The position numbers and the translations under genes were made by a program. A stretch of 64,000 nt of DNA from Agathobaculum sp. Lineage in GTDB: Bacteria > Bacillota > Clostridia > Oscillospirales > Butyricicoccaceae. Shown here in pieces: positions 3,608 through 35,085 of the stretch. Under the pieces are notes generated by a model, which had not been told where the DNA came from, did not search any database, and saw only the letters and a list, made by a program, of their open reading frames with translations. How positions within the stretch are numbered: the first letter of the stretch is position 1; every line of letters begins with the position of its first letter. Location of the stretch: assembly GCF_022775115.1 (NCBI RefSeq), contig NZ_JALFLA010000017.1, forward strand, positions 9,388 to 73,387, written 5' to 3'.

Positions 3608-4465
3608 TCAGCGCCGCACATATTTGACCGCGCCGAGCGCGGTCTGCGCGCCGTCGGCCACCGCCTTGGCGACCTGTAGGAGGCCGCCCGTGCAGTCGCC
3701 CGCGGCAAAAATGCCGGGCACATTGGTCGCGCCGGTGGCGTCGGTCAGGATGCGCGGGCCGTCGGTCTGCGCGCCGAGCTTGCGCGCAAAGTCCGCGCTG
3801 CCCGCCGTGCCGTAGGCAATAAACACCCCATCGACGGGAAGCGCCTCGCCCTCGGTAAATTCGACGCGCTGCACCTTGTCCTCGCCGACGATGGCCGCGA
3901 GCGGCCGCCGGTCGACCGCTAGCCCCTCAGGCAGTGTGTCGGGCGCGTCTGCCCCGCCGGTCAGCAGCGTGACAGAGGCGGCCACGGGCAGCAGTGTGCG
4001 CGCCTCCTCGAGCGCGTATTCGCCCTCGCCCAGCACCGCGACGGCCTTGCCCCGGTAAAAGAAGGCGTCGCATACCGCGCAGTAGCTGACACCCCGGCCT
4101 TCCAATTCCGCCACGCCGGGCAGCAGGGGCACAGCACGCGGCGCACCGGTGGCCAGAATGACCGCGTCAGCCGCGTAAACGCCTGCCGTGGTCTTGACGG
4201 TGTAGCCCTTTTCCGCGTATTCGATGCCGGTCACCTCGGCCTGCACGAGCGACGCGCCCAGCCGCTCGGCCTGCGCGCGGCCGCGCGCAAGCAGGTCGGG
4301 GCCGGTGAGCGGCTCGGTAAATCCGAAGTAATTCTCGATTTTGTCTGTCTTTTCCAGCGCGCCGCCGTTCCGGTACAGTACGGTGGTCTGCACATTGGAG
4401 CGCGCCGCGTAAACCGCGGCGGACAGCCCGGCCGGGCCGCCGCCGATGATAACGATCGAAGGCAT
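3608..4465 (-). CDS. trxB: thioredoxin-reductase-family flavoprotein
   Basis: IIGGGPAGLSAA FAD motif, VSYCAVCDAFFY CxxC, TNVPGIFAAGDC. Confidence 0.85.
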   Translation of the reverse strand: MPSIVIIGGGPAGLSAAVYAARSNVQTTVLYRNGGALEKTDKIENYFGFTEPLTGPDLLARGRAQAERLGASLVQAEVTGIEYAEKGYTVKTTAGVYAADAVILATGAPRAVPLLPGVAELEGRGVSYCAVCDAFFYRGKAVAVLGEGEYALEEARTLLPVAASVTLLTGGADAPDTLPEGLAVDRRPLAAIVGEDKVQRVEFTEGEALPVDGVFIAYGTAGSADFARKLGAQTDGPRILTDATGATNVPGIFAAGDCTGGLLQVAKAVADGAQTALGAVKYVRR

Positions 4466-4477
4466 AATGATTTCTCC

Positions 4478-5326
4478 TTATTGTTGATAGATTTCGGCTT
4501 CAAATTTATCGTGATACGCCTGCTGCAGCCTGCGCAGCAGCGCGGGCGCTTTGCCGCCGATGGGCGCGCCATCCAGCGCGCAGGCGGGTACGCAGTGCGA
4601 GCCGGTGGACAGGATCAGCACCTCGTCGGCCTTTCTCAGCTCGTCCAGCGTAAAGGGCGCGATACGGGTCGGGATGCCCAGCTTTTCGCAGAGCTGCAAG
4701 CAGTGCAGGCGGGTGACGCTGGGCAGGATCAGCTCGTCCGCCGGGGGCGTGCAGAACACGCCGTCCCACAGCAGGGCAAGGCCGGAATGCGCGCCCTCGG
4801 TCACGCGGCCGTTCCGGTGGTAAACGACCTCCTCACAGCCAGCCTCAGCGGCCTGCTGGAGCGCCATGACGTTGGGGATGAGGTTGAGCGTTTTGATGTT
4901 ACAGTGCAGAAAGCGCGTATCCTCGAGCGAGAGCAGGCGCATGGGCTTGTCCACCGGGTCGAGCGCCACCGGCTCGACAAAGATCAGCAGGCTGGGCGGC
5001 GCGTCCGCGGGAAAGGTGTGGCGGCGGTGGGCGTTGCCGCGCGTCGCCTGCCAATAGAGCATATGGAAGTCCGCGCCGTCCACCTTGCCGCAAAGCTCGC
5101 GCAGCAGTGCGGCCAGTGCGCCGCGCTCCATCGGCGGGCTGATGCGCAGCAGCGCCAGACTGCGGTAAAAGCGGTCAAGATGGTCGTCCAGCGCGAAGAT
5201 CCTGTCGCCGCGCGCAATGGCGGCCTCGTACACACCGTCCCCAAAGTAAAAGCCGCGATCGGTGACCGGCGCGCGCACCTCGTCGATCGCGCCGACCACA
5301 CCGTTGTAATATGCAATATCCCGCAT
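4478..5326 (-). CDS. dat: D-amino-acid aminotransferase (class IV PLP enzyme)
   Basis: DRGFYFGDGVYE, CNIKTLNLIPNV (PLP lysine), TEGAHS, ILPSVTR motifs. Confidence 0.85.
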   Translation of the reverse strand: MRDIAYYNGVVGAIDEVRAPVTDRGFYFGDGVYEAAIARGDRIFALDDHLDRFYRSLALLRISPPMERGALAALLRELCGKVDGADFHMLYWQATRGNAHRRHTFPADAPPSLLIFVEPVALDPVDKPMRLLSLEDTRFLHCNIKTLNLIPNVMALQQAAEAGCEEVVYHRNGRVTEGAHSGLALLWDGVFCTPPADELILPSVTRLHCLQLCEKLGIPTRIAPFTLDELRKADEVLILSTGSHCVPACALDGAPIGGKAPALLRRLQQAYHDKFEAEIYQQ

Positions 5327-5500
5327 GGGATGGATCCCCCTTCGATTCTTTGTCTGTGTATCCAGTATAACGGTTTCGTGCGGGGTTTGCAAGGGCGGGC
5401 GGATGTGCTATAATAAAGCATACCGCGTCCACGGGCGCGGCTTGCGGCCGAGCGGGACAAGCGCATGGCCGCCGCTTTGGCGATAAAGGAGTTGATTTTC

Positions 5501-6061
5501 ATGAAAACCTTGCTGCACGTCTGCTGCGCGCCGTGCTCGATCGTCTGCATCGACACGCTGCGGCAGGAGGGCATAGAGCCGGTGGGGTATTGGTATAACC
5601 CGAATATCCATCCGATGAAGGAATATAAGATGCGCAAAAACACCATGGTCGAGTACGCAAAGAGCATCGGCATGAAGCTCGAGGTGAACAATGAATACGG
5701 GCTGCGCCTCTTTATCGAGGGCGTTTACCCGGATTTTGACCGCCGCTGCGGCTTTTGCTACGCGCTGCGCTTTGACGAGACTGCGCGCTACGCGGCCGAG
5801 CACGGCTATGACTGCTTCACCTCGACACTGTTTGTCAGCCCCTATCAAAATCAGGGGTTGATGCGCGAGACGGCCGAGCGCGCCGCCGCCAAATACGGTG
5901 TGCAGTACCTGCACCGTGATTTTTCGCCCCGCTTCCACGAGGGACAGGACAAGGCGCGCGAGCTGGGGCTGTATATGCAAAACTACTGCGGCTGCGTATT
6001 CTCGGAGGAGGACCGCTACCGAAAAAGACCCAAAAAGAAAAAGGCAGAGGCGGGCGCGTAG
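5501..6061 (+). CDS. queH: epoxyqueuosine reductase QueH
   Basis: LLHVCCAPCS, YNPNIHP, RCGFCY, QNYCGCVFS motifs. Confidence 0.92.
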   Translation: MKTLLHVCCAPCSIVCIDTLRQEGIEPVGYWYNPNIHPMKEYKMRKNTMVEYAKSIGMKLEVNNEYGLRLFIEGVYPDFDRRCGFCYALRFDETARYAAEHGYDCFTSTLFVSPYQNQGLMRETAERAAAKYGVQYLHRDFSPRFHEGQDKARELGLYMQNYCGCVFSEEDRYRKRPKKKKAEAGA

Positions 6062-6210
6062 CGCGCAGACAGCCTGCGAAAAAGGATTTACAGTTAGAAT
6101 GCGGGAGACCTGAGCTACGGCGGTTTCACCAATTGCCGCAGCGGGCAGAGAGATATGGTAATATGACAGAAAAGCAAATCGGAATCTGAAATAGGGAGGG
6201 AAAATAACAG

Positions 6211-6900
6211 ATGAAACGTGTCATAAAAATAGTTACAATAGGAATTTGTGTAGGGTTTGTTCTGGTAATTTTCCAAAAGAGCTTTCGGATTGACGAGACT
6301 GCTTTTATGCGCGGTTATTGGATTGCTGCCCCGGCCATCATAATTGGGGCTGTGTTGATCAATGTATTTTATAACTTAGTCTATCTAAATAAGATGCGAA
6401 AAATCGCAAAGCTGTTGCGTGAGCAAAAGCCGCAGGAATACATCGACGGAATAGAAGCTTTACTCAAAACCGCGAAAGGGAAAAATTTACGAAATATTCT
6501 GACGTTGAATCTGGCTGCTGGATATGTCGAGATAAAACAATTTGACATGGCAATAACTATGCTGGAAGGATTATCTGCTAAGCATCTGAAAGGTTCTGCT
6601 GTAAATGCAGCTCATCGTCTCAATCTCTGCATCAGCTATTTTGAAACCGGACAGCATGAAAAGGCAATGGCGCTATACGATGGGAGTCAAACGCTTTTTA
6701 AGAAATACAGGGATGGAAACATTTATGGCGCCAATATAGCGCTGCTTGATATATTGGCAGCGATAGGGAATAAACAATACGAGCGGGCAGAAAAATTACT
6801 TGATTCGGCAAATAAAACATATGATGATGCCCGGTTTCAAAAAGCATTTCACGAAGTTGCCCATACCTTGAATGAAATTAAGGATAGCCAGCATGAGTAA
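6211..6900 (+). CDS. AT-rich hypothetical membrane protein with a TPR-like helical C-terminal region
   Basis: 229-aa ORF with strong RBS GGGAGGG; two N-terminal TM segments; helical repeats; composition differs visibly from the flanks. Confidence 0.8.
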   Translation: MKRVIKIVTIGICVGFVLVIFQKSFRIDETAFMRGYWIAAPAIIIGAVLINVFYNLVYLNKMRKIAKLLREQKPQEYIDGIEALLKTAKGKNLRNILTLNLAAGYVEIKQFDMAITMLEGLSAKHLKGSAVNAAHRLNLCISYFETGQHEKAMALYDGSQTLFKKYRDGNIYGANIALLDILAAIGNKQYERAEKLLDSANKTYDDARFQKAFHEVAHTLNEIKDSQHE

Positions 6901-7034
6901 CAACTTCCGGTTTATTTTGCACTTGAACAGGCCTCGCCGGTTCAAGGCAAGGCCGGTTCTGTTATTTTAATGAAGGAAAATTGAAATACCCAAAACCAAC
7001 ACATTAAGTTAAAACGGATTTACAGAATGTTCAC

Positions 7035-7063
7035 TTGCCAAACAGAATTTTTTTTGTTAGAAT
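7035..7063 (+). promoter_or_regulatory. sigma-A promoter of the rsmE operon
   Basis: TTGCCA, 17 bp, TAGAAT, with a TG extended -10. Confidence 0.6.
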
Positions 7064-7083
7064 AGGAAAGGTTATTTGTCAAG

Positions 7084-7809
7084 ATGCCGAGATTCTTTGT
7101 CACCGAGCGGCCGGAAAACGGCCGCATCACCCTGCGCGGGCAAAACGCGCACCACGCGGGGCGCGTGCTGCGGCTGCGCCCGGGCGAGCGCGTCACCCTG
7201 TGCGACGGCGCGGGGGAGGATTATGACTGTGTGGTCGAAACGGTGGAAAAGGACGCGGTCGCCTGCCGCGTGACGGCCATCCATCCGTCGGAGACCGAGC
7301 CAAAGCAGCGGCTGACGCTTTTTATGGCGCTGCCCAAGGGGGACAAGATGGAGCTGATCGTGCAAAAGGCGGTCGAGCTGGGGGTGCGCGATATCGTACC
7401 CTTTCTGTCTAAAAACTGCGTCTCCCGTCCGGATAAGACCGCGCAGAAGGTCGCGCGCTGGCAGCGTATCGCCGAGGAGGCGGCCAGCCAGTGCGGACGG
7501 GGCTGGCTGCCGCGCGTGCAGCCGGTCATACCGGCCGGGGAGGCCATCACGCGCGCGGCGCAAAGCGAGACTGCGCTGTTCTTTTATGAAAACGAAACGC
7601 AGACCGGGCTGCGGGCTGCGCTGTCGCGCGGCGTGGGCAGTACGGTCGCGCTGGTGATCGGCCCGGAGGGTGGCTTTGCCCCTGAGGAGGCCGCAGCCGC
7701 AAAGCAGGCCGGGCTGACGAGCGTGTCGCTCGGCCGACGCATCCTGCGGTGTGAAACGGCGCCGATCGCGGCGCTTGCCGCCGTTCTGTATGCGGGCGGC
7801 AATATGTAA
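7084..7809 (+). CDS. rsmE: 16S rRNA m3U1498 methyltransferase
   Basis: HAGRVLRLRPG, KGDKMELIVQKAVELG, IGPEGGF, LGRRILRCETA SPOUT motifs. Confidence 0.95.
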   Translation: MPRFFVTERPENGRITLRGQNAHHAGRVLRLRPGERVTLCDGAGEDYDCVVETVEKDAVACRVTAIHPSETEPKQRLTLFMALPKGDKMELIVQKAVELGVRDIVPFLSKNCVSRPDKTAQKVARWQRIAEEAASQCGRGWLPRVQPVIPAGEAITRAAQSETALFFYENETQTGLRAALSRGVGSTVALVIGPEGGFAPEEAAAAKQAGLTSVSLGRRILRCETAPIAALAAVLYAGGNM

Positions 7810-7831
7810 GATAAAAAGGGAGTGGGCCAAA

Positions 7832-8614
7832 TTGGCGAAGAGCAATGTAAGCAAAAAGCCAATCAGCGAGGAGGAATATACGACCAATAAGGTGCTGACC
7901 GTGTTCAGCGTTTGTCTGCTCGGCGTGTTGGTGCTGATGTTTGTGCAGCGGCAGCTGGATTACGCATCGACTTGGCGCACCGGCATGATGACCGTGCGCG
8001 CGCTGCTCGGCCTTGGTATTGTGGGCGTGCTTTGGGGCTTGTGGCTGCTCGTGTCCGAGCGCACGGGCAAGCGCACAGCCGCACGGCGTATCGTGTGCGG
8101 CCGCCATGTGCTGATTGTCAGCATCGTGCTGATCGCCTGCATGACGGCTGTCTATTATCTTGGCACGCAGCCGATCAAGGGGCTGTATGTGGTGCTGCCC
8201 GCGCTGGCGGTATACTATCTGGTCTACCACTCCTATGCGCCGGAGTTTTTCCTCATCGCGGTGGATGCGGGCGTGGCCGCCGGCCTGATATGGGTGGCGC
8301 ACCGCGCGGCCCTGTCCGCCAGCTACGGCTCGATGGCTTACGCGGCGCTGGGTGCGGCGGTGGTGCTGGCAATCGCGCAGATCGCCTGTGTGTATGGGCT
8401 GCGCGGCAAAAAGGGCGTATTGCAGCGGAGCGGCAAGACGGTCGACCTGCACTTGAGCCGCAACGCCTATCGGATGCTGACCGTCACGCCTGTGGTGATG
8501 GCCGTGTTGGTCGCGGTGGCCGTGCTCATGCCGACGGCCGCCCTCGCGGCGATGGGCATTGCGGCGGCATATCTGTTCATCACGGCGGTGTATTACACGG
8601 TAAAGCTGATGTAA
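7832..8614 (+). CDS. hypothetical polytopic membrane protein
   Basis: About 8 hydrophobic segments; TTG start after AGGGAG. Confidence 0.75.
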   Translation: MAKSNVSKKPISEEEYTTNKVLTVFSVCLLGVLVLMFVQRQLDYASTWRTGMMTVRALLGLGIVGVLWGLWLLVSERTGKRTAARRIVCGRHVLIVSIVLIACMTAVYYLGTQPIKGLYVVLPALAVYYLVYHSYAPEFFLIAVDAGVAAGLIWVAHRAALSASYGSMAYAALGAAVVLAIAQIACVYGLRGKKGVLQRSGKTVDLHLSRNAYRMLTVTPVVMAVLVAVAVLMPTAALAAMGIAAAYLFITAVYYTVKLM

Positions 8615-8687
8615 AGGCCGTTTTACCGGCATAACCAGCGGACGGCATCCCCGTCCGCTTTGCTTTTGGGGGAAAGGAGGAAGCCCT

Positions 8688-9467
8688 GTGCGGCGACCGG
8701 GCAAGCTGCTTGCAATGCTGCTGATCGTATGCGCCACCGTGCTCATGGCGGCCTATCCGTGGCTGACCGCCGTGCAGGTGCAAAGCCCGTTTGCGGCGGC
8801 CGCGCTGCTCGAGCGTGACCTGCGCGGGCAGAACAAGGGTGTGCTGTTCCGCAGCGCGCAGATCGACCTGCAAGCGGTGTACAGCGCGCTCGAGGCGCGC
8901 TACCCCTACGCCTTTTCGCTGCACGCTTCGTCCCGTGCGGGCGGCACGACTTTGGTGCGCGCCGAGCTGTCCCGTCCCGCGCGGCAGCGGCAGGCGCGGG
9001 AGTACGCGGCCGTGCTCGCAGCCGAGACCGTTTCCGGCGGCATGACTGACGCGCAAAAGCTGCGCGCGCTGCACGACGCGCTGGTGCGGCTGTGCGCCTA
9101 TGACAGCCGAACGGCCGCCAGTGCCGCGCCCGACGGCGCGACCGCACCCTTTGCCGCGGACGGCGCGCTGCTCGACCACAGGGCCGTATGCGCGGGCTAT
9201 GGCCGTGCCTTTGGTATGCTGTGCGAAGCCGTCGGACTGCGCACGGTCTACATCGCCTCGGAGGAGATGAACCACGGCTGGAATGCGGTGCGGCTGGACG
9301 GGCAGACCTATTACATCGACTGCACTTTTGACGATCCCGTGCCCGACCGGGGCGAATATGTGTCCGACCGGTATTTTCTGCTGACTGCTGAGCAATTGTC
9401 CGCCACACATCTGTGGGATAAAGCATTTTACGAACAGGCGCTTGACAGCCTATACGCGGAAAAATAA
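8688..9467 (+). CDS. exported transglutaminase-like (Cys-His-Asp) domain protein
   Basis: Signal/TM N-terminus; AVCAGYGRAF, NHGWNAVRLDG, IDCTFDDP motifs. Confidence 0.85.
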   Translation: MRRPGKLLAMLLIVCATVLMAAYPWLTAVQVQSPFAAAALLERDLRGQNKGVLFRSAQIDLQAVYSALEARYPYAFSLHASSRAGGTTLVRAELSRPARQRQAREYAAVLAAETVSGGMTDAQKLRALHDALVRLCAYDSRTAASAAPDGATAPFAADGALLDHRAVCAGYGRAFGMLCEAVGLRTVYIASEEMNHGWNAVRLDGQTYYIDCTFDDPVPDRGEYVSDRYFLLTAEQLSATHLWDKAFYEQALDSLYAEK

Positions 9468-9491
9468 CGGGGATAAAAATGAAAAAGGCGC

Positions 9492-9520
9492 TTGACAACC
9501 GAAGAAAATCGTATTATAAT
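9492..9520 (+). promoter_or_regulatory. consensus sigma-A promoter of the tRNA operon
   Basis: TTGACA (9492-9497), 17 bp, TATAAT (9515-9520). Confidence 0.85.
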
Positions 9521-9562
9521 ATTTATCGTCGCCAGCGAACGGGCGACAGAGGGAAAGTATAT

Positions 9563-9639
9563 GGCGGTATAGCTTAGTTGGCTAGAGCGTCCGGTTCATA
9601 CCCGGAAGGTCATTGGTTCAAGTCCAATTACCGCTACCA
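9563..9639 (+). tRNA. tRNA-Met (CAT), elongator type
   Basis: Cloverleaf; anticodon arm TCCGG-TTCATAC-CCGGA; G1-T72 paired; encoded CCA. Confidence 0.93.
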
Positions 9640-9649
9640 TTTCCCCCTT

Positions 9650-9724
9650 GGCCCGTTGGTCAAGCGGTCAAGACACCGCCCTTTCACGGCGGTAACGGGG
9701 GTTCGATTCCCCCACGGGTCACCA
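9650..9724 (+). tRNA. tRNA-Glu (TTC)
   Basis: Cloverleaf; anticodon loop CTTTCAC; GGTTCGATTCC T-arm; CCA. Confidence 0.95.
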
Positions 9725-9727
9725 TAC

Positions 9728-9803
9728 GGAAGTTTAGCTCAGCTGGGAGAGCATCTGCCTTACAAGCAGAGGGTCAGCGGTTCGAGCCCGTTAACTTCCA
9801 CCA
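9728..9803 (+). tRNA. tRNA-Val (TAC)
   Basis: Cloverleaf; anticodon loop CTTACAA; CCA. Confidence 0.95.
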
Positions 9804-9807
9804 ACAA

Positions 9808-9850
9808 TTATCCCGCAGAGACAGATGTTTCTGCGGGATAATTTATTTTT
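9808..9850. terminator. intrinsic terminator between the tRNA operon and the convergent azoreductase gene
   Basis: TTATCCCGCAGAGAC / GTTTCTGCGGGATAA stem followed by a T-rich tail. Confidence 0.8.
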
Positions 9851-9877
9851 CAGCGCGGCAGATGCCCTTAACGCGGC

Positions 9878-10474
9878 TCAGAAGGTCTGCGCCAGCGCGC
9901 GGGCGCGCGTCTCGGCCTCGGTCATCAGGGCGTCCACATCCGCGCCGGCGATGTCCAGTCCCTCGGCCACCACTGTGTCCAGCTGCGTGATGCCGAGCAG
10001 GCGCATGATCGAGCCGAGAAAGGCTGAGGCGTGATCGTCCGCGCGGGCAGGGCCGGCCGAGTAAATGCCGCCGCGCGTCGAAAAGAATACGGCGCGCCCG
10101 GCGCGGCAGTAGCCTTCGGGTCGTCCGTCAGCCGCGTAGCCAAAGGTCAGCCCGGTGACACAGATGTGCTCCAGATAGGCGTGCAGCGCAGCGGGAAAGG
10201 TCCCTTCCCAAAAGGGTGCGGCAAACACAACGAGGTCGGCCGCGCGAAACTGGCGCGCAAGCGCAAAGCAGGGCTGCTGCCAGTCACCCATGGCTGCGTC
10301 ACGCGCGGCCAGCGTGTCGCCAAACAGCGGGGCCGGGCGCAGGATGTTGAGGTCGACTGTGTCAACACGCGCCTGAGGGCAGCGGGTACGCAGCGCGTCC
10401 AGAAAGGCGGTGGCAAGACGGCGGGTGCGCGAGACCGTGCCGCGTACACAGCCGTCCACAAAAAGAATCTGCAT
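9878..10474 (-). CDS. FMN-dependent NAD(P)H azoreductase/quinone reductase (flavodoxin-fold 2)
   Basis: ILFVDGCVRGTVSRT, ADLVVFAAPFWEGTFPAALHAYLE, FSTRGGIY motifs. Confidence 0.85.
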   Translation of the reverse strand: MQILFVDGCVRGTVSRTRRLATAFLDALRTRCPQARVDTVDLNILRPAPLFGDTLAARDAAMGDWQQPCFALARQFRAADLVVFAAPFWEGTFPAALHAYLEHICVTGLTFGYAADGRPEGYCRAGRAVFFSTRGGIYSAGPARADDHASAFLGSIMRLLGITQLDTVVAEGLDIAGADVDALMTEAETRARALAQTF

Positions 10475-10677
10475 GAAAAACACTCCTTTGAATGATTTTG
10501 GAAGAAACGATGGCTTACACGAGCAATTCGATGCGCTTGATACCCGGAGGCTATTATACCACAGCGGTGAGCATTTATTGCGTCAAAGCGCTTGTCCATG
10601 TGCCGCTGGTGATATAATTATAAAATAATTGGTATAATGGCCGTCTCGCGGCTATTGTACCACAATGGAAGACGGTT

Positions 10678-10938
10678 GTGAAGCAAAAGCATTGGCTTGG
10701 TGCCATGGTTATAGTTTGTATCATAGCCGTCTTGTGGTTTATGATAGCAGCGAGCGCCATATCTCGCCGCGCAATCGCACGAGGGACTTCGGATACTATG
10801 TTCTGCTATCCTTCATCTTTTTTATTCACTTGTCCAATATATGTTGCAATCCTGCACAAAAAAGAAAAAGTCAGACGTAGAATCGCTTTACAAACCGCGA
10901 CAACTGTGTTATACTATAAACCGTACCCGCGCCCGTAG
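10678..10938 (+). CDS. tentative small AT-rich membrane protein
   Basis: Two hydrophobic segments and an upstream extended -10 (TGaTATAAT); however the ORF runs over the tRNA-Arg promoter, so the end or the whole ORF is doubtful. Confidence 0.3.
   Translation: MKQKHWLGAMVIVCIIAVLWFMIAASAISRRAIARGTSDTMFCYPSSFLFTCPIYVAILHKKEKVRRRIALQTATTVLYYKPYPRP
10887..10915 (+). promoter_or_regulatory. sigma-A promoter of tRNA-Arg
   Basis: TTTACA, 17 bp, TATACT. Confidence 0.7.
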
Positions 10939-11130
10939 CTCAGTTGGATAGAGCGTCAGACTCCGACTCTGAAGGCCGCCGGTTCGAATCCAGTCGGGCG
11001 TACCAAGCCGGAGCAAGTGATAGTACACTTGCTTCGGCTTTTTTGCATAAAAAAGCGCCTGTTTCATAATGGATAAAATGCGCAACAGAATAATTGCGCA
11101 AATCAAAAGCTGAAAAGCTTTTTTCCGCAT
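10909..11130 (-). CDS. candidate type I toxin-like hydrophobic peptide (C-terminal part doubtful)
   Basis: GGAGGT SD 7 nt before ATG; MRKKAFQLLICAIILLRILSI; upstream TTGACG-18-TGgTATAAT promoter; anti-SD sequence in the 5' UTR. Confidence 0.45.
   Translation of the reverse strand: MRKKAFQLLICAIILLRILSIMKQALFYAKKPKQVYYHLLRLGTPDWIRTGGLQSRSLTLYPTELRARVRFIV
10929..11005 (+). tRNA. tRNA-Arg (CCG)
   Basis: Cloverleaf; anticodon arm TCAGA-CTCCGAC-TCTGA; CCA. Confidence 0.93.
11005..11044 (+). terminator. intrinsic terminator of tRNA-Arg
   Basis: AAGCCGGAGCAAGTG / CACTTGCTTCGGCTT stem plus T-run. Confidence 0.85.
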
Positions 11131-15230: not shown

Positions 15231-16214
15231 TCAAAGCACAGCGGTGGGGCGGCGGCTGTGGGCGACAAAGGCGCTCCAATCGCCCCCGCGCAGGTGCGCC
15301 TGCACGGAAAAGCCGTTTTGCTCGAGCGCGGCACGCACCTCGTCCGCGCGTTCGTTGAGAATGCCCGAGCAGATCAGCGTGCCGCCCGGCACGAGCTTTT
15401 CGGCAAACAGCGCGGCCATGCCGATGATGACATCGGCCACAATGTTGGCCACGATGACGTCATACCCGCCGCCGATCTCGCGGGCGAGCGCCGGGCTGCG
15501 CTGCGCATCGCCGCACAGGCTGCGGCCGATCACAACGCCGTTTTTCGCCGCGTTTTCCTGCGCGGTTTGCAGGCAGTTTTGGTCGATATCGACCACCGCC
15601 TCGACCTGCGCGCCCAGCATGGCCGCCGCGATCGCCAGAATGCCCGAGCCGGTGCCCATGTCAAGCAGGCGCTCGCCGCCGCGCACGGTATCCTCAAGCG
15701 CGGCGATGCAAAGCTGGGTGGTGTCGTGGCTGCCTGTGCCAAAGCTTGAGGCCGGGTCGATTTCGAGTATCCGCCGCCCCTGTGCGTCCTCAACCGTCTC
15801 CCACGAGGGCTTGATGAGAAACGTCCGCCCGACCGGAAAGGGCTTGAAGTACTGCTTCCAGCCCCACTCCCAGTCCTGCTGGCGGGTGGTCGCGGTGTCG
15901 GTCGCAAGGCGGCCCCAGCGTCCATCCGTGTCCTGCGCGCGCAGCTCGTCCAGCGCCGCGCGGATGGCCGCAAGCTGCGCCGCGCCCGCCTCGTCGTCGG
16001 ACAGGTAGATCTTCAGGCAGGTTTCCTGCGCGCGCTTTTCGCGCACCAGATCTTCATCCACATAGTCCCAGTATATCTCGGTATCCTTGAGAAATTCCTC
16101 AAAATCCGCAGCGTCCTCCAGCACATAGCCCTCTACGCCGTTCTCCTCCAGCGCCGCCGCGACCGGCTCGATGCCCGCGGTGGTCGTGTAGATCGTGATC
16201 TCTTTCCAGTCCAA
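15231..16214 (-). CDS. prmA: ribosomal protein L11 methyltransferase
   Basis: DWEWGWKQYFKP, IDPASSFGTGSHDTT, LDMGTGSGIL, ANIVADVI; TTG start after GGAAGGAG. Confidence 0.93.
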   Translation of the reverse strand: MDWKEITIYTTTAGIEPVAAALEENGVEGYVLEDAADFEEFLKDTEIYWDYVDEDLVREKRAQETCLKIYLSDDEAGAAQLAAIRAALDELRAQDTDGRWGRLATDTATTRQQDWEWGWKQYFKPFPVGRTFLIKPSWETVEDAQGRRILEIDPASSFGTGSHDTTQLCIAALEDTVRGGERLLDMGTGSGILAIAAAMLGAQVEAVVDIDQNCLQTAQENAAKNGVVIGRSLCGDAQRSPALAREIGGGYDVIVANIVADVIIGMAALFAEKLVPGGTLICSGILNERADEVRAALEQNGFSVQAHLRGGDWSAFVAHSRRPTAVL

Positions 16215-33089: not shown

Positions 33090-33919
33090 TGGCGGTGGAC
33101 ACACCGGTTTTGCAGGCGCGCGGCCTGTGTTTTTCTTATGACGGGCGAACGAACGCGCTCGACAGCGTGTCGCTCGATATCCGCGCAGGCGAGCGGCTGG
33201 CCGTGCTGGGACAGAACGGGGCGGGCAAATCGACGCTGTTTTTGTGTCTCAACGGTGTGCTCGCGCCCACGGCGGGCGAGGTGCTGCTGCACGGCCAGCC
33301 GATGCGCGGCAAGCGGCGGCGGGCGCTGTGCGCGCAGGTCGGCATCGTGTTCCAGCAGGCGGACGATCAGATCATCGCCTCGACGGTCGCGGGCGAGGTA
33401 TCCTTCGGGCCGATGAACCTGCGCCTGCCGCGGGATGAGGTGGTGCGCCGGGTCGACCGGGCGCTGGACTGCATGGAGCTGCAGCCGCTGCGGAGCAGGC
33501 CGCCGCACGAGCTGTCGGGCGGGGAAAAAAAGCGCGTGACCATCGCGGACATCCTTGCGATGGAGAGCGAGGTCATTTTGTTCGATGAGCCGGGCGCGTC
33601 TCTCGATCCGGCGGGCGAGGCGCGGCTGGAGGGCGTGCTGGAGCGCCTGTCCGGCGCGGGCAAGACGCTGGTCATCGCAACGCATGATATGGGTTTTGCC
33701 TTCCGCTGGGCGACGCGCGCGGTCGTCTTCAGCGGCGGCCGCCTGATCGCCGACGGCACCCCCGAGGAGGTGTTCCGAAACGAGGCGGCGCTTGCGGCGG
33801 CGCACCTGAAAAAGCCCGCCATGCTCGAGGTGTTCGAGCTGCTGCGCGCGCGCGGCCTTGTGCCGGCGGACGCGCCCTGCCCGAAAACGCCGGCGGCGCT
33901 CGAACGGCTATTAAAGTGA
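33089..33919 (+). CDS. cbiO: cobalt ECF transporter ATPase
   Basis: GQNGAGKST, VFQQADDQI, LSGGEKKRV, LFDEP, ATHD. Confidence 0.92.
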   Translation: MAVDTPVLQARGLCFSYDGRTNALDSVSLDIRAGERLAVLGQNGAGKSTLFLCLNGVLAPTAGEVLLHGQPMRGKRRRALCAQVGIVFQQADDQIIASTVAGEVSFGPMNLRLPRDEVVRRVDRALDCMELQPLRSRPPHELSGGEKKRVTIADILAMESEVILFDEPGASLDPAGEARLEGVLERLSGAGKTLVIATHDMGFAFRWATRAVVFSGGRLIADGTPEEVFRNEAALAAAHLKKPAMLEVFELLRARGLVPADAPCPKTPAALERLLK

Positions 33920-33940
33920 GCGAAAAAACGCGGCACATGC

Positions 33941-33968
33941 TTGACAGCACCTGCCGCCATGCTATAAT
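33941..33968 (+). promoter_or_regulatory. sigma-A promoter of the cobalamin operon
   Basis: TTGACA, 16 bp, TATAAT, with a TG extended -10. Confidence 0.8.
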
Positions 33969-33999
33969 GGAATTACTTCTTCCGGCCAAACAGCCGGAT

Positions 34000-34175
34000 A
34001 CGATGGGGTGCCTGCCAATTCTCCGGCAGGATAATAGGGAAAGAGGTGCAAGTCCTCTGCGGTCCCGCCGCTGTAAGGGAAGAGTCCGCCGCCAGACGAT
34101 GGTCACTGGAGCGAAAGCCTCCGGGAAGATCGGCAAACGGATGATGATGCCCAAGCCAGAATACCTGCCCCCTCG
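34000..34175 (+). ncRNA. cobalamin (AdoCbl) riboswitch aptamer
   Basis: GGTGC..AATAGGGAA.GAGGTGCAAGTCCTCTGCGGTCCCGCCGCTGTAA ... CACTGG..CCGGGAAGA (B12 box) ... AAGCCAGAATACCTGCC; upstream of cbiM. Confidence 0.93.
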
Positions 34176-34256
34176 GATGGAAGTGCAACCGGCTACGAGT
34201 GATGGCCGGCGTGTGTCGCGCGGCTTTCCGCCCGAAAAGGGGGGAGGCGGCGGTGT

Positions 34257-34303
34257 ACGCCGGGTTCGGTGCGTGGGTAAGCACTGGGACAGGGCGTTTT
34301 TTT
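34257..34303 (+). terminator. riboswitch expression-platform terminator
   Basis: ACGCC..GTTCGGTGC / GCACTGGGAC..GGCGT stem followed by T7, before the cbiM RBS. Confidence 0.7.
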
Positions 34304-34341
34304 ATGCCCCTTGGCGGGCATGATGGAAAGGAGAAAACAAT

Positions 34342-35085
34342 ATGACAGGCAAACAAAAAAGACTGGTGCGTCTGACCGCGTGTGCGGCGCTTTGCTGCGG
34401 TATGCTGCCGATGGCGGGCGCGATGCACATCATGGAGGGTTATTTGCCGCCCGCAATGTGCATTGCTTGGGGCGCGGTCGCGCTGCCCTTTCTTGCGGCG
34501 GGCTATTTTTCGCTGAAAAAGCGGGTCGCAGCCGACCGCCGCGCGCTCACACTTGCCGCGATGGCGGGCGCGTTTATATTCGTGATATCATCGCTCAAGA
34601 TACCGTCGGTGACCGGCTCGTGCTCGCACATGACCGGCACGGGGCTGGGCGCCATCCTGTTTGGGCCGAGCGCGGTGTCCGTTCTCGGCATCATCGTGCT
34701 GCTGTTTCAGGCCATCCTGCTGGCGCACGGCGGCCTGACCAGCCTTGGCGCGAACACCTTTTCGATGGCGGTGGCCGGGCCTTTCGTCAGCTACGGGATA
34801 TACAAGCTGTGCGGCAGGCTGCGGATCAATAAAATGGTGGCGGTGTTCCTCGCCGCGTCGCTGGGCGACCTGTTTACCTATGGCGTGACCAGCCTGCAGC
34901 TGGCGCTGGCCTATCCGTCGGCCACGGGCGGCGTGGCCGGCTCGGTGGTCGAGTTTCTCGGCGTGTTCGCGCCGACCCAGCTGCCGCTGGCCGTGCTGGA
35001 GGGTATTCTGACCGTTATCACGATGATCGCATTGGAATCCTATGCGCGGCCGGAGCTGCGCGCCGTTGGCTTTGGGGAGGCGTGA
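34342..35085 (+). CDS. cbiM: cobalt ECF transporter S component with an N-terminal leader peptide
   Basis: AGA|MHIMEGYLP mature N-terminus; [15 protein letters not shown]. Confidence 0.95.

Follow-up and report, generated by a model that had tools for sequence, protein, structure and literature searches.

A low-GC TPR gene islet in an Agathobaculum chromosome and its probable origin in the cargo slot of mobilizable elements of gut Clostridia

Between the genes queH and rsmE of an Agathobaculum genome lies a low-GC islet of about 950 bp that contains a single gene for a membrane protein with tetratricopeptide repeats (TPR). The islet was analyzed within a stretch of 64,000 nucleotides (hereinafter, the window; positions 9388-73387 of contig C68 in the 2.19-Mb assembly denoted G000). 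The open reading frame (ORF) is bracketed by two short palindromic sites, L on the 5′ side and R on the 3′ side; the same conserved pair marks the start and the stop of cargo ORFs in a family of mobilizable elements that is very widespread among gut Firmicutes, and flanks resistance genes on Campylobacter plasmids. The islet is probably an immobile, horizontally acquired relic, namely an expression module from the cargo slot of an integrative mobilizable element (IME) of gut Clostridia. An initial annotation, made from the sequence alone, had interpreted the gene as a mobile single-gene cassette; at this locus, that interpretation is not supported, given that the sites are inverted, the edges of the foreign DNA are outside the motifs and no recombinase can be tied to the sites.

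The islet and its sites

The GC fraction of the islet is 0.37-0.43 as opposed to 0.55-0.73 in the surrounding DNA (200-nt windows). The TPR gene, correctly recognized in the initial annotation as an AT-rich gene with transmembrane and TPR-like regions between queH and rsmE (Pfam matches TPR_19, QueH and Methyltrans_RNA with PUA_4, respectively), has a GC of 0.40 and a GC at third codon positions (GC3) of 0.39, compared to GC3 values of 0.78-0.88 in its neighbors. Both hydrophobic helices are encoded at the 5′ end of the ORF, which terminates with a TAA codon at 6898-6900 (Table 1).

The two 12-mers originally reported to bracket the gene are found exactly where they had been placed: AAATCGGAATCT, at 6176-6187, is located 23 nt 5′ of the ATG (6211), and AACTTCCGGTTT, at 6902-6913, starts 1 nt past the TAA. 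As an inverted pair, they match in 9 of 12 positions, and 9/12 or better is reached in 38% of 500 shuffles of the 45-nt flanks, so that the inverted pair alone is no evidence. Both 12-mers are, however, degenerate copies of one 16-bp near-palindrome, ACAAAT-NNNN-ATTTGT, which is matched in 14/16 positions by the R site of the window and in 13/16 by the reverse complement of its L site. The centers of the two sites, CGGA in L and TCCG in R, are exact reverse complements, and L is located between the -10 box and the ribosome-binding site (RBS), a position common to 5 other aligned cassettes.

The right edge of the islet is placed at about 7017, where the conserved rsmE promoter region of the congeners resumes; accordingly, the DNA at ~6062-7016 is considered foreign. 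The left edge is placed no more finely than the queH stop. The foreign DNA reaches ~110 bp to the left of L and ~100 bp to the right of R, and because it continues past both sites, the motifs are not the edges of the insertion. No target-site duplication was seen by eye beside the sites, either in the window or in the similar locus on contig C77 described below.

Table 1. Coordinates of the islet, its parts and neighbors in the window, and of motif matches on other contigs of the same genome (contig number given before the position)
Feature	Position	Strand	Evidence or remark
queH (epoxyqueuosine reductase)	5501..6061	+	Pfam QueH, E 1.9e-56; native high-GC left neighbor
Low-GC foreign island, ~950 bp	6062..7016	+	Promoter, L site, ORF, R site, terminator-like hairpin
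Extended -10-like box TGGTAATAT	6156..6164	+	Predicted; aligns with the TATGGTATAAT / TATGATATAAT box of the slot promoter and the C. coli-type cat
L site (5′ junction site) GCAAATCGGAATCTGA	6174..6189	+	Includes the first 12-mer
RBS GGGAGGG	6194..6200	+	Read from the sequence; 10 nt 5′ of the ATG
Cargo ORF, 229 aa	6211..6900	+	Two transmembrane helices and all-helical TPR domain; Pfam TPR_19, E 1.6e-6
R site (3′ junction site) ACAACTTCCGGTTTAT	6900..6915	+	Shares the last stop-codon base; includes the second 12-mer
Terminator-like hairpin with T-rich tail	6936..6957	+	Consensus scan
Native rsmE promoter region, TTGCCA-17-TAGAAT with TG	7017..7083	+	AT-rich, not foreign; promoter scan 10/12
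rsmE (16S rRNA methyltransferase)	7084..7809	+	RsmE, E 4.7e-52; Pfam Methyltrans_RNA and PUA_4; right neighbor
tRNA-Arg(CCG)	10929..11005	+	ARAGORN
prmA	15261..16214	-	Pfam PrmA, E 1.5e-72
Motif matches around RsgA-like GTPase gene	C77 33244, 34674		
Motif match 5′ of GNAT gene	C76 9548		
Motif match at low-GC ORF boundary	C30 7254		
Motif matches at low-GC ORF boundary	C43 17400, 17605		
Motif match; ORF reads through site	C22 21335		

Two further sequence features of the islet were considered. A perfect 11-nt inverted repeat (6201-6211 and 6958-6968) was dismissed as non-collinear with the L/R pair. On the minus strand, 6105-6125 resembles the 5′ end of a tRNA (CCGTAGCTCAGG), which may be a chance similarity or a relic; ARAGORN calls no tRNA there.

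A family of palindromic sites at the boundaries of unrelated genes

The two sites of the window belong to two recurrent forms. In the R form, T(G/A)ACAAAT-TCCA-ATTTGTCGA, the left arm includes or abuts the stop codon of the preceding ORF. In the L form, (T)CGACAAAT-CGGA-ATTTGT, which is located 7-20 nt past a TATAAT-type box, the right arm runs into GGAGG. The L form is roughly the reverse complement of the R form, so that the ORF is bracketed by an inverted pair. Such pairs bracket unrelated low-GC ORFs in G000 and in many gut Clostridia, in agreement with what the initial annotation had put forward, and are also found around the cat gene of Campylobacter coli.

Within G000, the degenerate motif formulated in the initial annotation, ARMTTCCRRTTT, occurs 17 times, against an expectation of 3.2 ± 2.2 (maximum 8) from 30 local dinucleotide shuffles, that is, with an enrichment of about 5-fold. 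Of the 15 matches outside the window, 7 fall where a low-GC ORF starts or ends, 2 are ambiguous, and the other 6, within ORFs or in a terminator loop, look like chance occurrences. Sites that match the 16-bp consensus in at least 14 positions number 14, and those matching in at least 13 positions number 77, over 4.39 million positions. An architecture similar to that of the window is found on contigs C77, C22, C30, C76 and C43 (C-numbers denote contigs of G000 and L-numbers, used below, loci from the genomes compared). Similar relics with remnants of an origin of transfer (oriT) are present on C77 and C22, the only contigs of G000 that were matched by a profile of the oriT region in an nhmmer search. 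The genome also encodes 25 Resolvase-domain matches, several of them of invertase size, and one TnpV match, none of which is linked to the window.

The C77 locus (33100-34930; L077 1121-2929) contains a low-GC gene for an RsgA-like GTPase between inverted L and R sites. Outer inverted repeats of 15 and 22 nt that end in GGGGGATTTTTTTAT lie beyond these sites, and an oriT-like remnant is present to the right of the GTPase gene, ~200 bp from the contig end. More generally, about 250 kb (11%) of G000 falls in 300-nt windows with a GC below 0.46, and 25 Resolvase-domain matches are a high load for a genome of this size.

A scan of species genomes for AAATTCCRRTTTGTCG matched at least 120 stretches, 80 loci from which were taken for analysis; we calculate that chance alone would give on the order of 1000 matches in 596 Gb. 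In 28 of the 80 loci, the site is preceded, at a distance of 30 bp or less, by the end of an ORF of 60 aa or longer; 6 of these ORFs run off the locus, which leaves 22 that are testable. An L-like site (at least 12/16) combined with an in-frame start near the 5′ end was found in 12 of the 22. Such matches have a background rate of 8.7e-4 per position, and the chance expectation, generously estimated by us, is below 4 of 22. Among the ORFs that precede R sites, 22 are distributed over at least 13 Pfam families, and 5 are assigned to none. The cargo includes GNATs, methyltransferases, HAD, MazG, PNPOx, DUF3795, DUF5714 and peptidase S51 proteins as well as an NMN transporter, a cyclase and a protein with a beta-lactamase fold. 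At one locus (L150, ~1500-1560), two tandem R-type sites ~24 nt apart are located 3′ of a GNAT gene.

The cargo slot of mobilizable elements

A module of ~1.1 kb that includes a TPR homologue (64% amino acid identity to the window protein) is 91-99% identical, mostly 94-97%, among 6 genomes in which its flanks are unrelated: those of Agathobaculum, Flintibacter faecis, C. vitabionis, Pilosibacter, Avoscillospira and a Clostridiales metagenome-assembled genome (MAG). In 4 of the 6 module loci (L053-L056), the word AAAT(T/C)(T/C)C(A/G)(A/G)TTTG(G/T)CG is found at the left edge of the module, directly past the stop of upstream genes that differ among the loci (TfoX_N, an unknown, SF0329 and glyoxalase); this word forms the core of the near-palindrome described above. 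The 260 nt upstream of the mobile TPR homologues match C. coli plasmids. On one of these, pCC14983A-1, the 260-nt element is located between the cargo region and DUF3847 plus mobQ, within a unit of the order recombinase, TnpV, cargo, element, DUF3847, MobQ, ..., TnpW. Read on the opposite strand, the element core includes AAGTGCGCCCT, a word from the MOBQ oriT consensus that is quoted in one article (PMC3832669) and likewise, for Gram-positives, in another (PMC10333310). For MOBQ2 IMEs, DUF3847 is described as adjoining the relaxase in all of them and a PF14198 (TnpV) protein as present in 16 of 24 (PMC12084326).

A scan for the oriT core matched at least 120 stretches. The 80 loci taken come almost exclusively from gut Firmicutes, with the addition of Bifidobacterium and Coriobacteriaceae, and in 30 of them an R site (at least 15/19) is located 24-56 nt upstream of the core. 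A MOBQ-type oriT core is carried by Bifidobacterium simiiventris, Bifidobacterium biavatii and a Coriobacteriaceae genome (L240, L256 and L292); the R site is present in both Bifidobacterium loci and absent from L292. Given the presence of the oriT core in Bifidobacterium and Coriobacteriaceae, the element family crosses phyla. A search of Rfam with the oriT-like element produced no match, the only matches being group II introns in L058. In this Pilosibacter fragilis locus, intron pieces (3628-4737 and 6241-6325, matching D1-D4 and D5-D6) adjoin the oriT/TPR module at its left edge and also interrupt the start of a DUF3847-like gene.

Across these elements, a conserved backbone (..TATGGTATAATTTGAATACGAAATTGAGAA|ACAAATCGGAATTT..) stops at L and resumes at R before oriT, and the cargo in between differs: a 50-aa peptide (L258), SF0329 (L055/L286), a GNAT-like gene (L246), an AAA ATPase with further genes (L202) or cat (L203). 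When 186 loci were compared all against all, 59 of the 489 internal homology endpoints are within 12 bp of a site center, against 3.0 ± 1.6 (maximum 7) in 200 random trials, an enrichment that is inflated by the selection of these loci for the site or the oriT core. The site-specific exchange in trans that was proposed initially finds some support in the elements, where cargo differs and backbone homology ends inside the sites, but none at the window locus; integron-like, trans-acting recombination is a hypothesis about the element family.

The cat gene of the C. coli type provides a further instance of the pair: the cassette primers 'Catout', 5705 and 'C2' lie on L and R, and both sites appear in the primer tables included in the available parts of two articles (PMC7012605, PMC3994027). 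In one slot, the cargo, aph(3′)-VIIa, is in inverted orientation. On the L202 plasmid of C. coli, the L site and the first codons of the AAA ATPase gene are duplicated (4112-4160 versus 2009-2060) before a second slot, in which the start codon is altered and the inverted aph(3′)-VIIa comes next; the duplicate is a trace of duplication and insertion within the cargo region.

The islet of the window aligns with this slot on both sides. The 5′ flank aligns best with the cat version: TATGGTAATAT, 10 nt, GCAAATCGGAATCT, then GGGAGGG. The 3′ flank, TAAC|AACTTCCGGTTT..GCACTTGA, aligns with TAAC|AAATTCCAGTTTGTCGCACTGA of L054 and then diverges into the hairpin at 6936-6957. The window thus shows, in order, a TATGGTATAAT-type box, L, an RBS, the ORF, a stop at R and then ..TTTGTCG(A/C).., and because both flanks align, the capture appears to have covered the slot in full, with DNA on the outer sides of L and R.

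The TPR protein and its relatives

The AlphaFold2 model of the 229-aa protein (pLDDT 85.4) is all-helical, with a two-helix membrane hairpin followed by TPR-like repeats. A fold search retrieved generic TPR proteins only (PlcR, BepA, LapB, YfgM-like, MamA), with weak E-values; no match of the window protein reached the cut-off in NCBIfam, and both PADLOC matches are weak (E 0.005-0.01). We take the protein to be a membrane-anchored TPR scaffold, to which no partner is assigned.

A protein search of 40 relatives yielded weak, TPR-level matches in 3 only (E 1e-4 to 7e-6), and the gene is single-copy within G000. With its deviant GC3 and without a real homologue in the 40 relatives, the TPR gene of the window is foreign to this genome. 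Searches of phage (50,697 records) and plasmid proteins detected no match to the TPR protein, and a JGI metagenome scan with the protein produced one irrelevant match, at 35%. The protein family comprises 139 clusters at E <= 0.001, the best 120 of which are at 45-97% identity; many members are on contigs of 1-3 kb. The family is patchily distributed across Oscillospiraceae, Lachnospiraceae, Anaerotignum and Agathobaculum.

In contigs from one genome per species, the homologues split into two classes. Members of the low-GC class (0.30-0.36) occur in unrelated genera. Members of the other class match the GC of their genomes and are syntenic, 5′ of a GTPase gene (Pfam MMR_HSR1), in Flintibacter muris, Pseudoflavonifractor and several Oscillospiraceae MAGs; in L061, L063, L065, L067, L068, L073 and L074, these homologues overlap the start of the GTPase gene (MNIQWYPGHM...). 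In some Oscillospiraceae, the TPR family looks like a core, vertically inherited gene.

Rearrangement and fixation at the locus

The locus is the junction of a complex, lineage-specific rearrangement that split rsmE from prmA and queH from tRNA-Arg. The gene order S41 peptidase, an unknown gene, prmA, rsmE, a membrane protein and a transglutaminase-like gene is found in 8 of 8 congeners inspected over 20 kb, and the rsmE promoter region (TTCACTTGCCAAA...TTTTTTGTTAGAATAGGAAAGG) is in the same place, directly past the prmA stop, in 27 of 29 congener loci; in G000, prmA, the ancestral upstream neighbor of rsmE, is now 8 kb off from rsmE and the block downstream of it, and inverted. On the other side, the block of trxB-like, aminotransferase IV and queH genes is kept in 4 of 5 congeners (G004 has no aminotransferase IV match), and what lies 3′ of queH differs among the 5. 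The tRNA-Arg(CCG) gene directly follows queH in 3 congeners, and in G000 the two are separated by 6062-10928. No sequence common to both rearrangement junctions was found above chance.

In none of the 29 congener loci is queH within 1.5 kb of rsmE; the congeners are at about 75% amino acid identity. The two genes not being adjacent elsewhere, none of the relatives examined has an empty site of the kind by which the initial annotation had expected the breakpoints to be mapped, and the breakpoints do not coincide with the motifs. The same applies to the second islet, on C22, the flanks of which are not adjacent in 19 congeners either.

Contigs from three independent pig or bovine gut metagenome studies bridge both island junctions at ~99% identity (X15 record 3, 4500-7121; X8 records 18 and 19; X19 records 9 and 13). 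No contig joining across the island was seen, although contigs cannot exclude rare variants; likewise, the contigs of 4 runs, in which minor variants are dropped, show a single orientation only. Three strain single-nucleotide polymorphisms (SNPs) are located within the 3′ motif, at 6903, 6907 and 6910. Taken alone, the islet is unremarkable: a gene acquired by horizontal transfer, now fixed and with no function assigned.

Origin of the islet and possible roles of the sites

The probable source of the islet would have been an element with the order large serine recombinase, TnpV, cargo, MOBQ-type oriT, DUF3847 and MobQ relaxase. Its slot would have consisted of an extended -10 promoter, L, an RBS and a cargo ORF ending at or before R, followed by oriT or a terminator. 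The unit in the window can be read as the corresponding remnant, with the TGGTAATAT box, a decayed L, the RBS, the TPR gene, a decayed R, ~15 nt of post-R backbone and the hairpin. The fragment is likely to have entered by illegitimate or rearrangement-linked recombination and not via the L and R sites, which in the elements themselves may be the points of cargo exchange.

Several observations weigh against this derivation. It draws on ~60 nt of flank similarity per side plus the sites, and the left edge of the island is placed only as far as the queH stop. No relaxase, TnpV or recombinase is encoded among the 25 ORFs scanned in the window, at 1-26 kb, and it is for this portion that the earlier statement on the absence of integrases and transposases is corroborated. 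On the elements, the TPR homologues (L053-L058) themselves lack bracketing by L and R, and their genes are only 72% identical to the window gene at the DNA level, within the coding sequence only. Furthermore, at least 16 of the 80 AAATTCCRRTTTGTCG loci are from non-Firmicutes and are probably chance matches. Finally, among the 186 loci compared, in addition to the selection bias noted above, no high-scoring segment pair has both ends at sites, and no cassette was seen to have moved whole.

With regard to the action of L and R, quite possibly they are protein-binding or expression signals, such as an operator bound by a regulatory or relaxosome protein or a stem-loop at the 5′ end with its RBS context; the cargo would then be exchanged by homologous recombination in the flanks, which are conserved. 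The palindromic arms and the fixed R-to-oriT spacing suggest a dimeric DNA-binding protein, and the position of L in the 5′ leader together with the ORF-exact boundaries would fit expression signals. That L and R are true site-specific recombination sites is conceivable but somewhat doubtful; simple excision is disfavored because the sites are inverted. MOBQ nicking and 5′-to-3′ transfer start at the AAGTGCGCCCT strand; with this polarity, the cargo side of oriT would be the first part to reach the recipient, and the cargo genes would have the transferred strand as their template.

A still more tentative proposal is that the palindromes serve for recombination in an undescribed system of cassette exchange in Firmicutes. 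At the site centers, ORF units from RBS to stop would be swapped, inverted or captured by a protein encoded in trans or on the element, the elements would keep a defined slot beside oriT, and chromosomal islets such as that of the window would be fossils.

Another explanation, which we regard as unlikely, treats L and R as RNA or expression signals and not as sites of DNA recombination: a 5′-proximal stem-loop, ACAAAU-CGGA-AUUUGU, would be formed by L and joined to the RBS, R would be a matching 3′ element, the two would pair in the mRNA or bind one protein, stabilizing or regulating the cargo transcripts, and cargo turnover would be due to ordinary homologous recombination in the conserved flanks. 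Such a role is compatible with the invariable placement of L between the -10 box and the RBS and of R at the stop before a terminator or oriT, and in the window, as read from the sequence, AAAUCGGAA of L can pair with UUCCGGUUU of R over 9 bp; the highly conserved backbone on both sides of the slot offers homology for double crossovers. However, AU-rich stems of 6 bp are weak, the palindromic arms and the fixed distance from R to the oriT core fit a DNA-binding protein better, and, by eye, the L and R of a cassette complement each other no better than the consensus.

Insertion and excision of the TPR gene as a single-gene cassette by a trans-acting site-specific recombinase at both sites, in the manner of integrons, is improbable. 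The sites of the window do belong to a real, recurrent family at ORF boundaries, related elements change cargo with breakpoints inside the sites, the genome abounds in Resolvase-domain matches, some of invertase size, and the centers CGGA and TCCG are exactly complementary. For serine and tyrosine recombinases, however, inverted sites give inversion and not excision. Moreover, the foreign DNA extends well beyond both sites, the arms are decayed (13/16 and 14/16, with the three strain SNPs in the 3′ site), no contig skips the island (which for contigs does not prove absence), no recombinase was found at 1-26 kb of the window, and the central dinucleotides of L and R, compared by eye, agree in about half of the cassettes only.

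That L and R are terminal inverted repeats of a non-autonomous transposon is very unlikely, and other explanations of their action take up the remainder. Least probable of all is that the motifs are chance words in AT-rich DNA and the island an ordinary horizontally acquired islet: although the 12-mer pair is matched in 38% of shuffles, the motif is AT-rich in a genome with 11% low-GC DNA and 6 of the 15 other matches resemble chance, the motif is enriched 5-fold over local dinucleotide shuffles, both sites are at the exact positions and in the exact orientations of their class, the flanks beyond them align with the slot too, and the joint placement of 13-14/16 sites in low-GC DNA is expected, by our own estimate, at ~1e-3 genome-wide.

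In a search of 8.4 million papers, the site words were encountered in primer tables only, with no description of the sites, and the accessible parts of the literature on Tn4451, TnpV and their cargo contain no description of such sites. If L and R are recombination or regulatory signals, they would explain the ORF-by-ORF exchange of accessory and resistance genes and would allow such cargo, as well as its relics in chromosomes, to be located in metagenomes by a simple sequence tag. If an exchange system indeed exists, it would be a functional analogue of integrons in Firmicutes, feeding cat, aph and other genes into elements that reach Campylobacter and Bifidobacterium.

Comparison with known systems

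A terminal inverted repeat transposon (a miniature element with a passenger gene) has its repeats at the very ends of the mobile DNA, beside a target-site duplication; L and R are inverted repeats, but the foreign DNA continues outside them and no duplication was seen by eye. A segment flipped by a serine invertase has inverted sites with an identical central dinucleotide and is present in both orientations in a population; in the window the centers are complementary, and one orientation is found in the contigs of 4 runs, which drop minor variants. Phage 'morons' are autonomous promoter-gene-terminator units of deviant composition between native genes, and the islet is a unit of this kind; in contrast, the window has no phage context, and there is no homologue among the 50,697 phage records.

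The pdif modules of Acinetobacter plasmids are units of a single or a few genes between inverted short sites, without a recombinase of their own and with resistance genes among their cargo. This organization is shared with the cassettes described here, whereas the sites differ: pdif sites are XerC/XerD sites of the 11-6-11 type (XerC-spacer-XerD, 28 bp), and L and R have arms of 6-9 bp and a 4-nt center, with no resemblance to dif apparent in a comparison with the known pdif pattern.

Integron cassettes resemble the L/R units in being compact RBS-ORF-site units, with the 3′ site on or directly next to the stop codon and breakpoints within the sites, and the cargo repertoires (GNATs, methyltransferases, small unknowns) are alike. 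However, attC is one imperfect inverted repeat of 60-140 nt (R''-L''...L'-R') that is present only at the 3′ end of the ORF and acts as a single folded site, whereas here palindromes of 16-22 bp are found at both ends, in inverted orientation. The integron platform consists of the tyrosine recombinase IntI with attI and Pc nearby and cassettes in one orientation; no IntI/attI/Pc platform was seen in the scanned portion of the window (25 ORFs), and the host elements integrate by serine recombinases. To our knowledge, integrons are essentially absent in Firmicutes.

The C. coli cat cassette (catA13, in use as a genetic marker) has the same bracketing of the gene by L and R and differs from the islet in its cargo and in its location among resistance genes on conjugative plasmids, beside a fragment of the oriT element. 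The closest comparison is with the IMEs of the MOBQ2 type, with their serine recombinase, TnpV, DUF3847 and MobQ, the gene content of which overlaps that of Tn4451/Tn4453, the carriers of catP/catD. The L and R sites are not mentioned in the parts of the MOBQ2 IME literature that were accessible. In contrast to these elements, the islet is a fixed chromosomal fragment of ~950 bp, with no relaxase, DUF3847, TnpV or recombinase in the ORFs scanned at 1-26 kb and no oriT match by the profile applied genome-wide. Nevertheless, the promoter box, L, RBS, ORF, R and the first post-R bases of their slot align with the window, and the TPR family itself rides such elements beside oriT.

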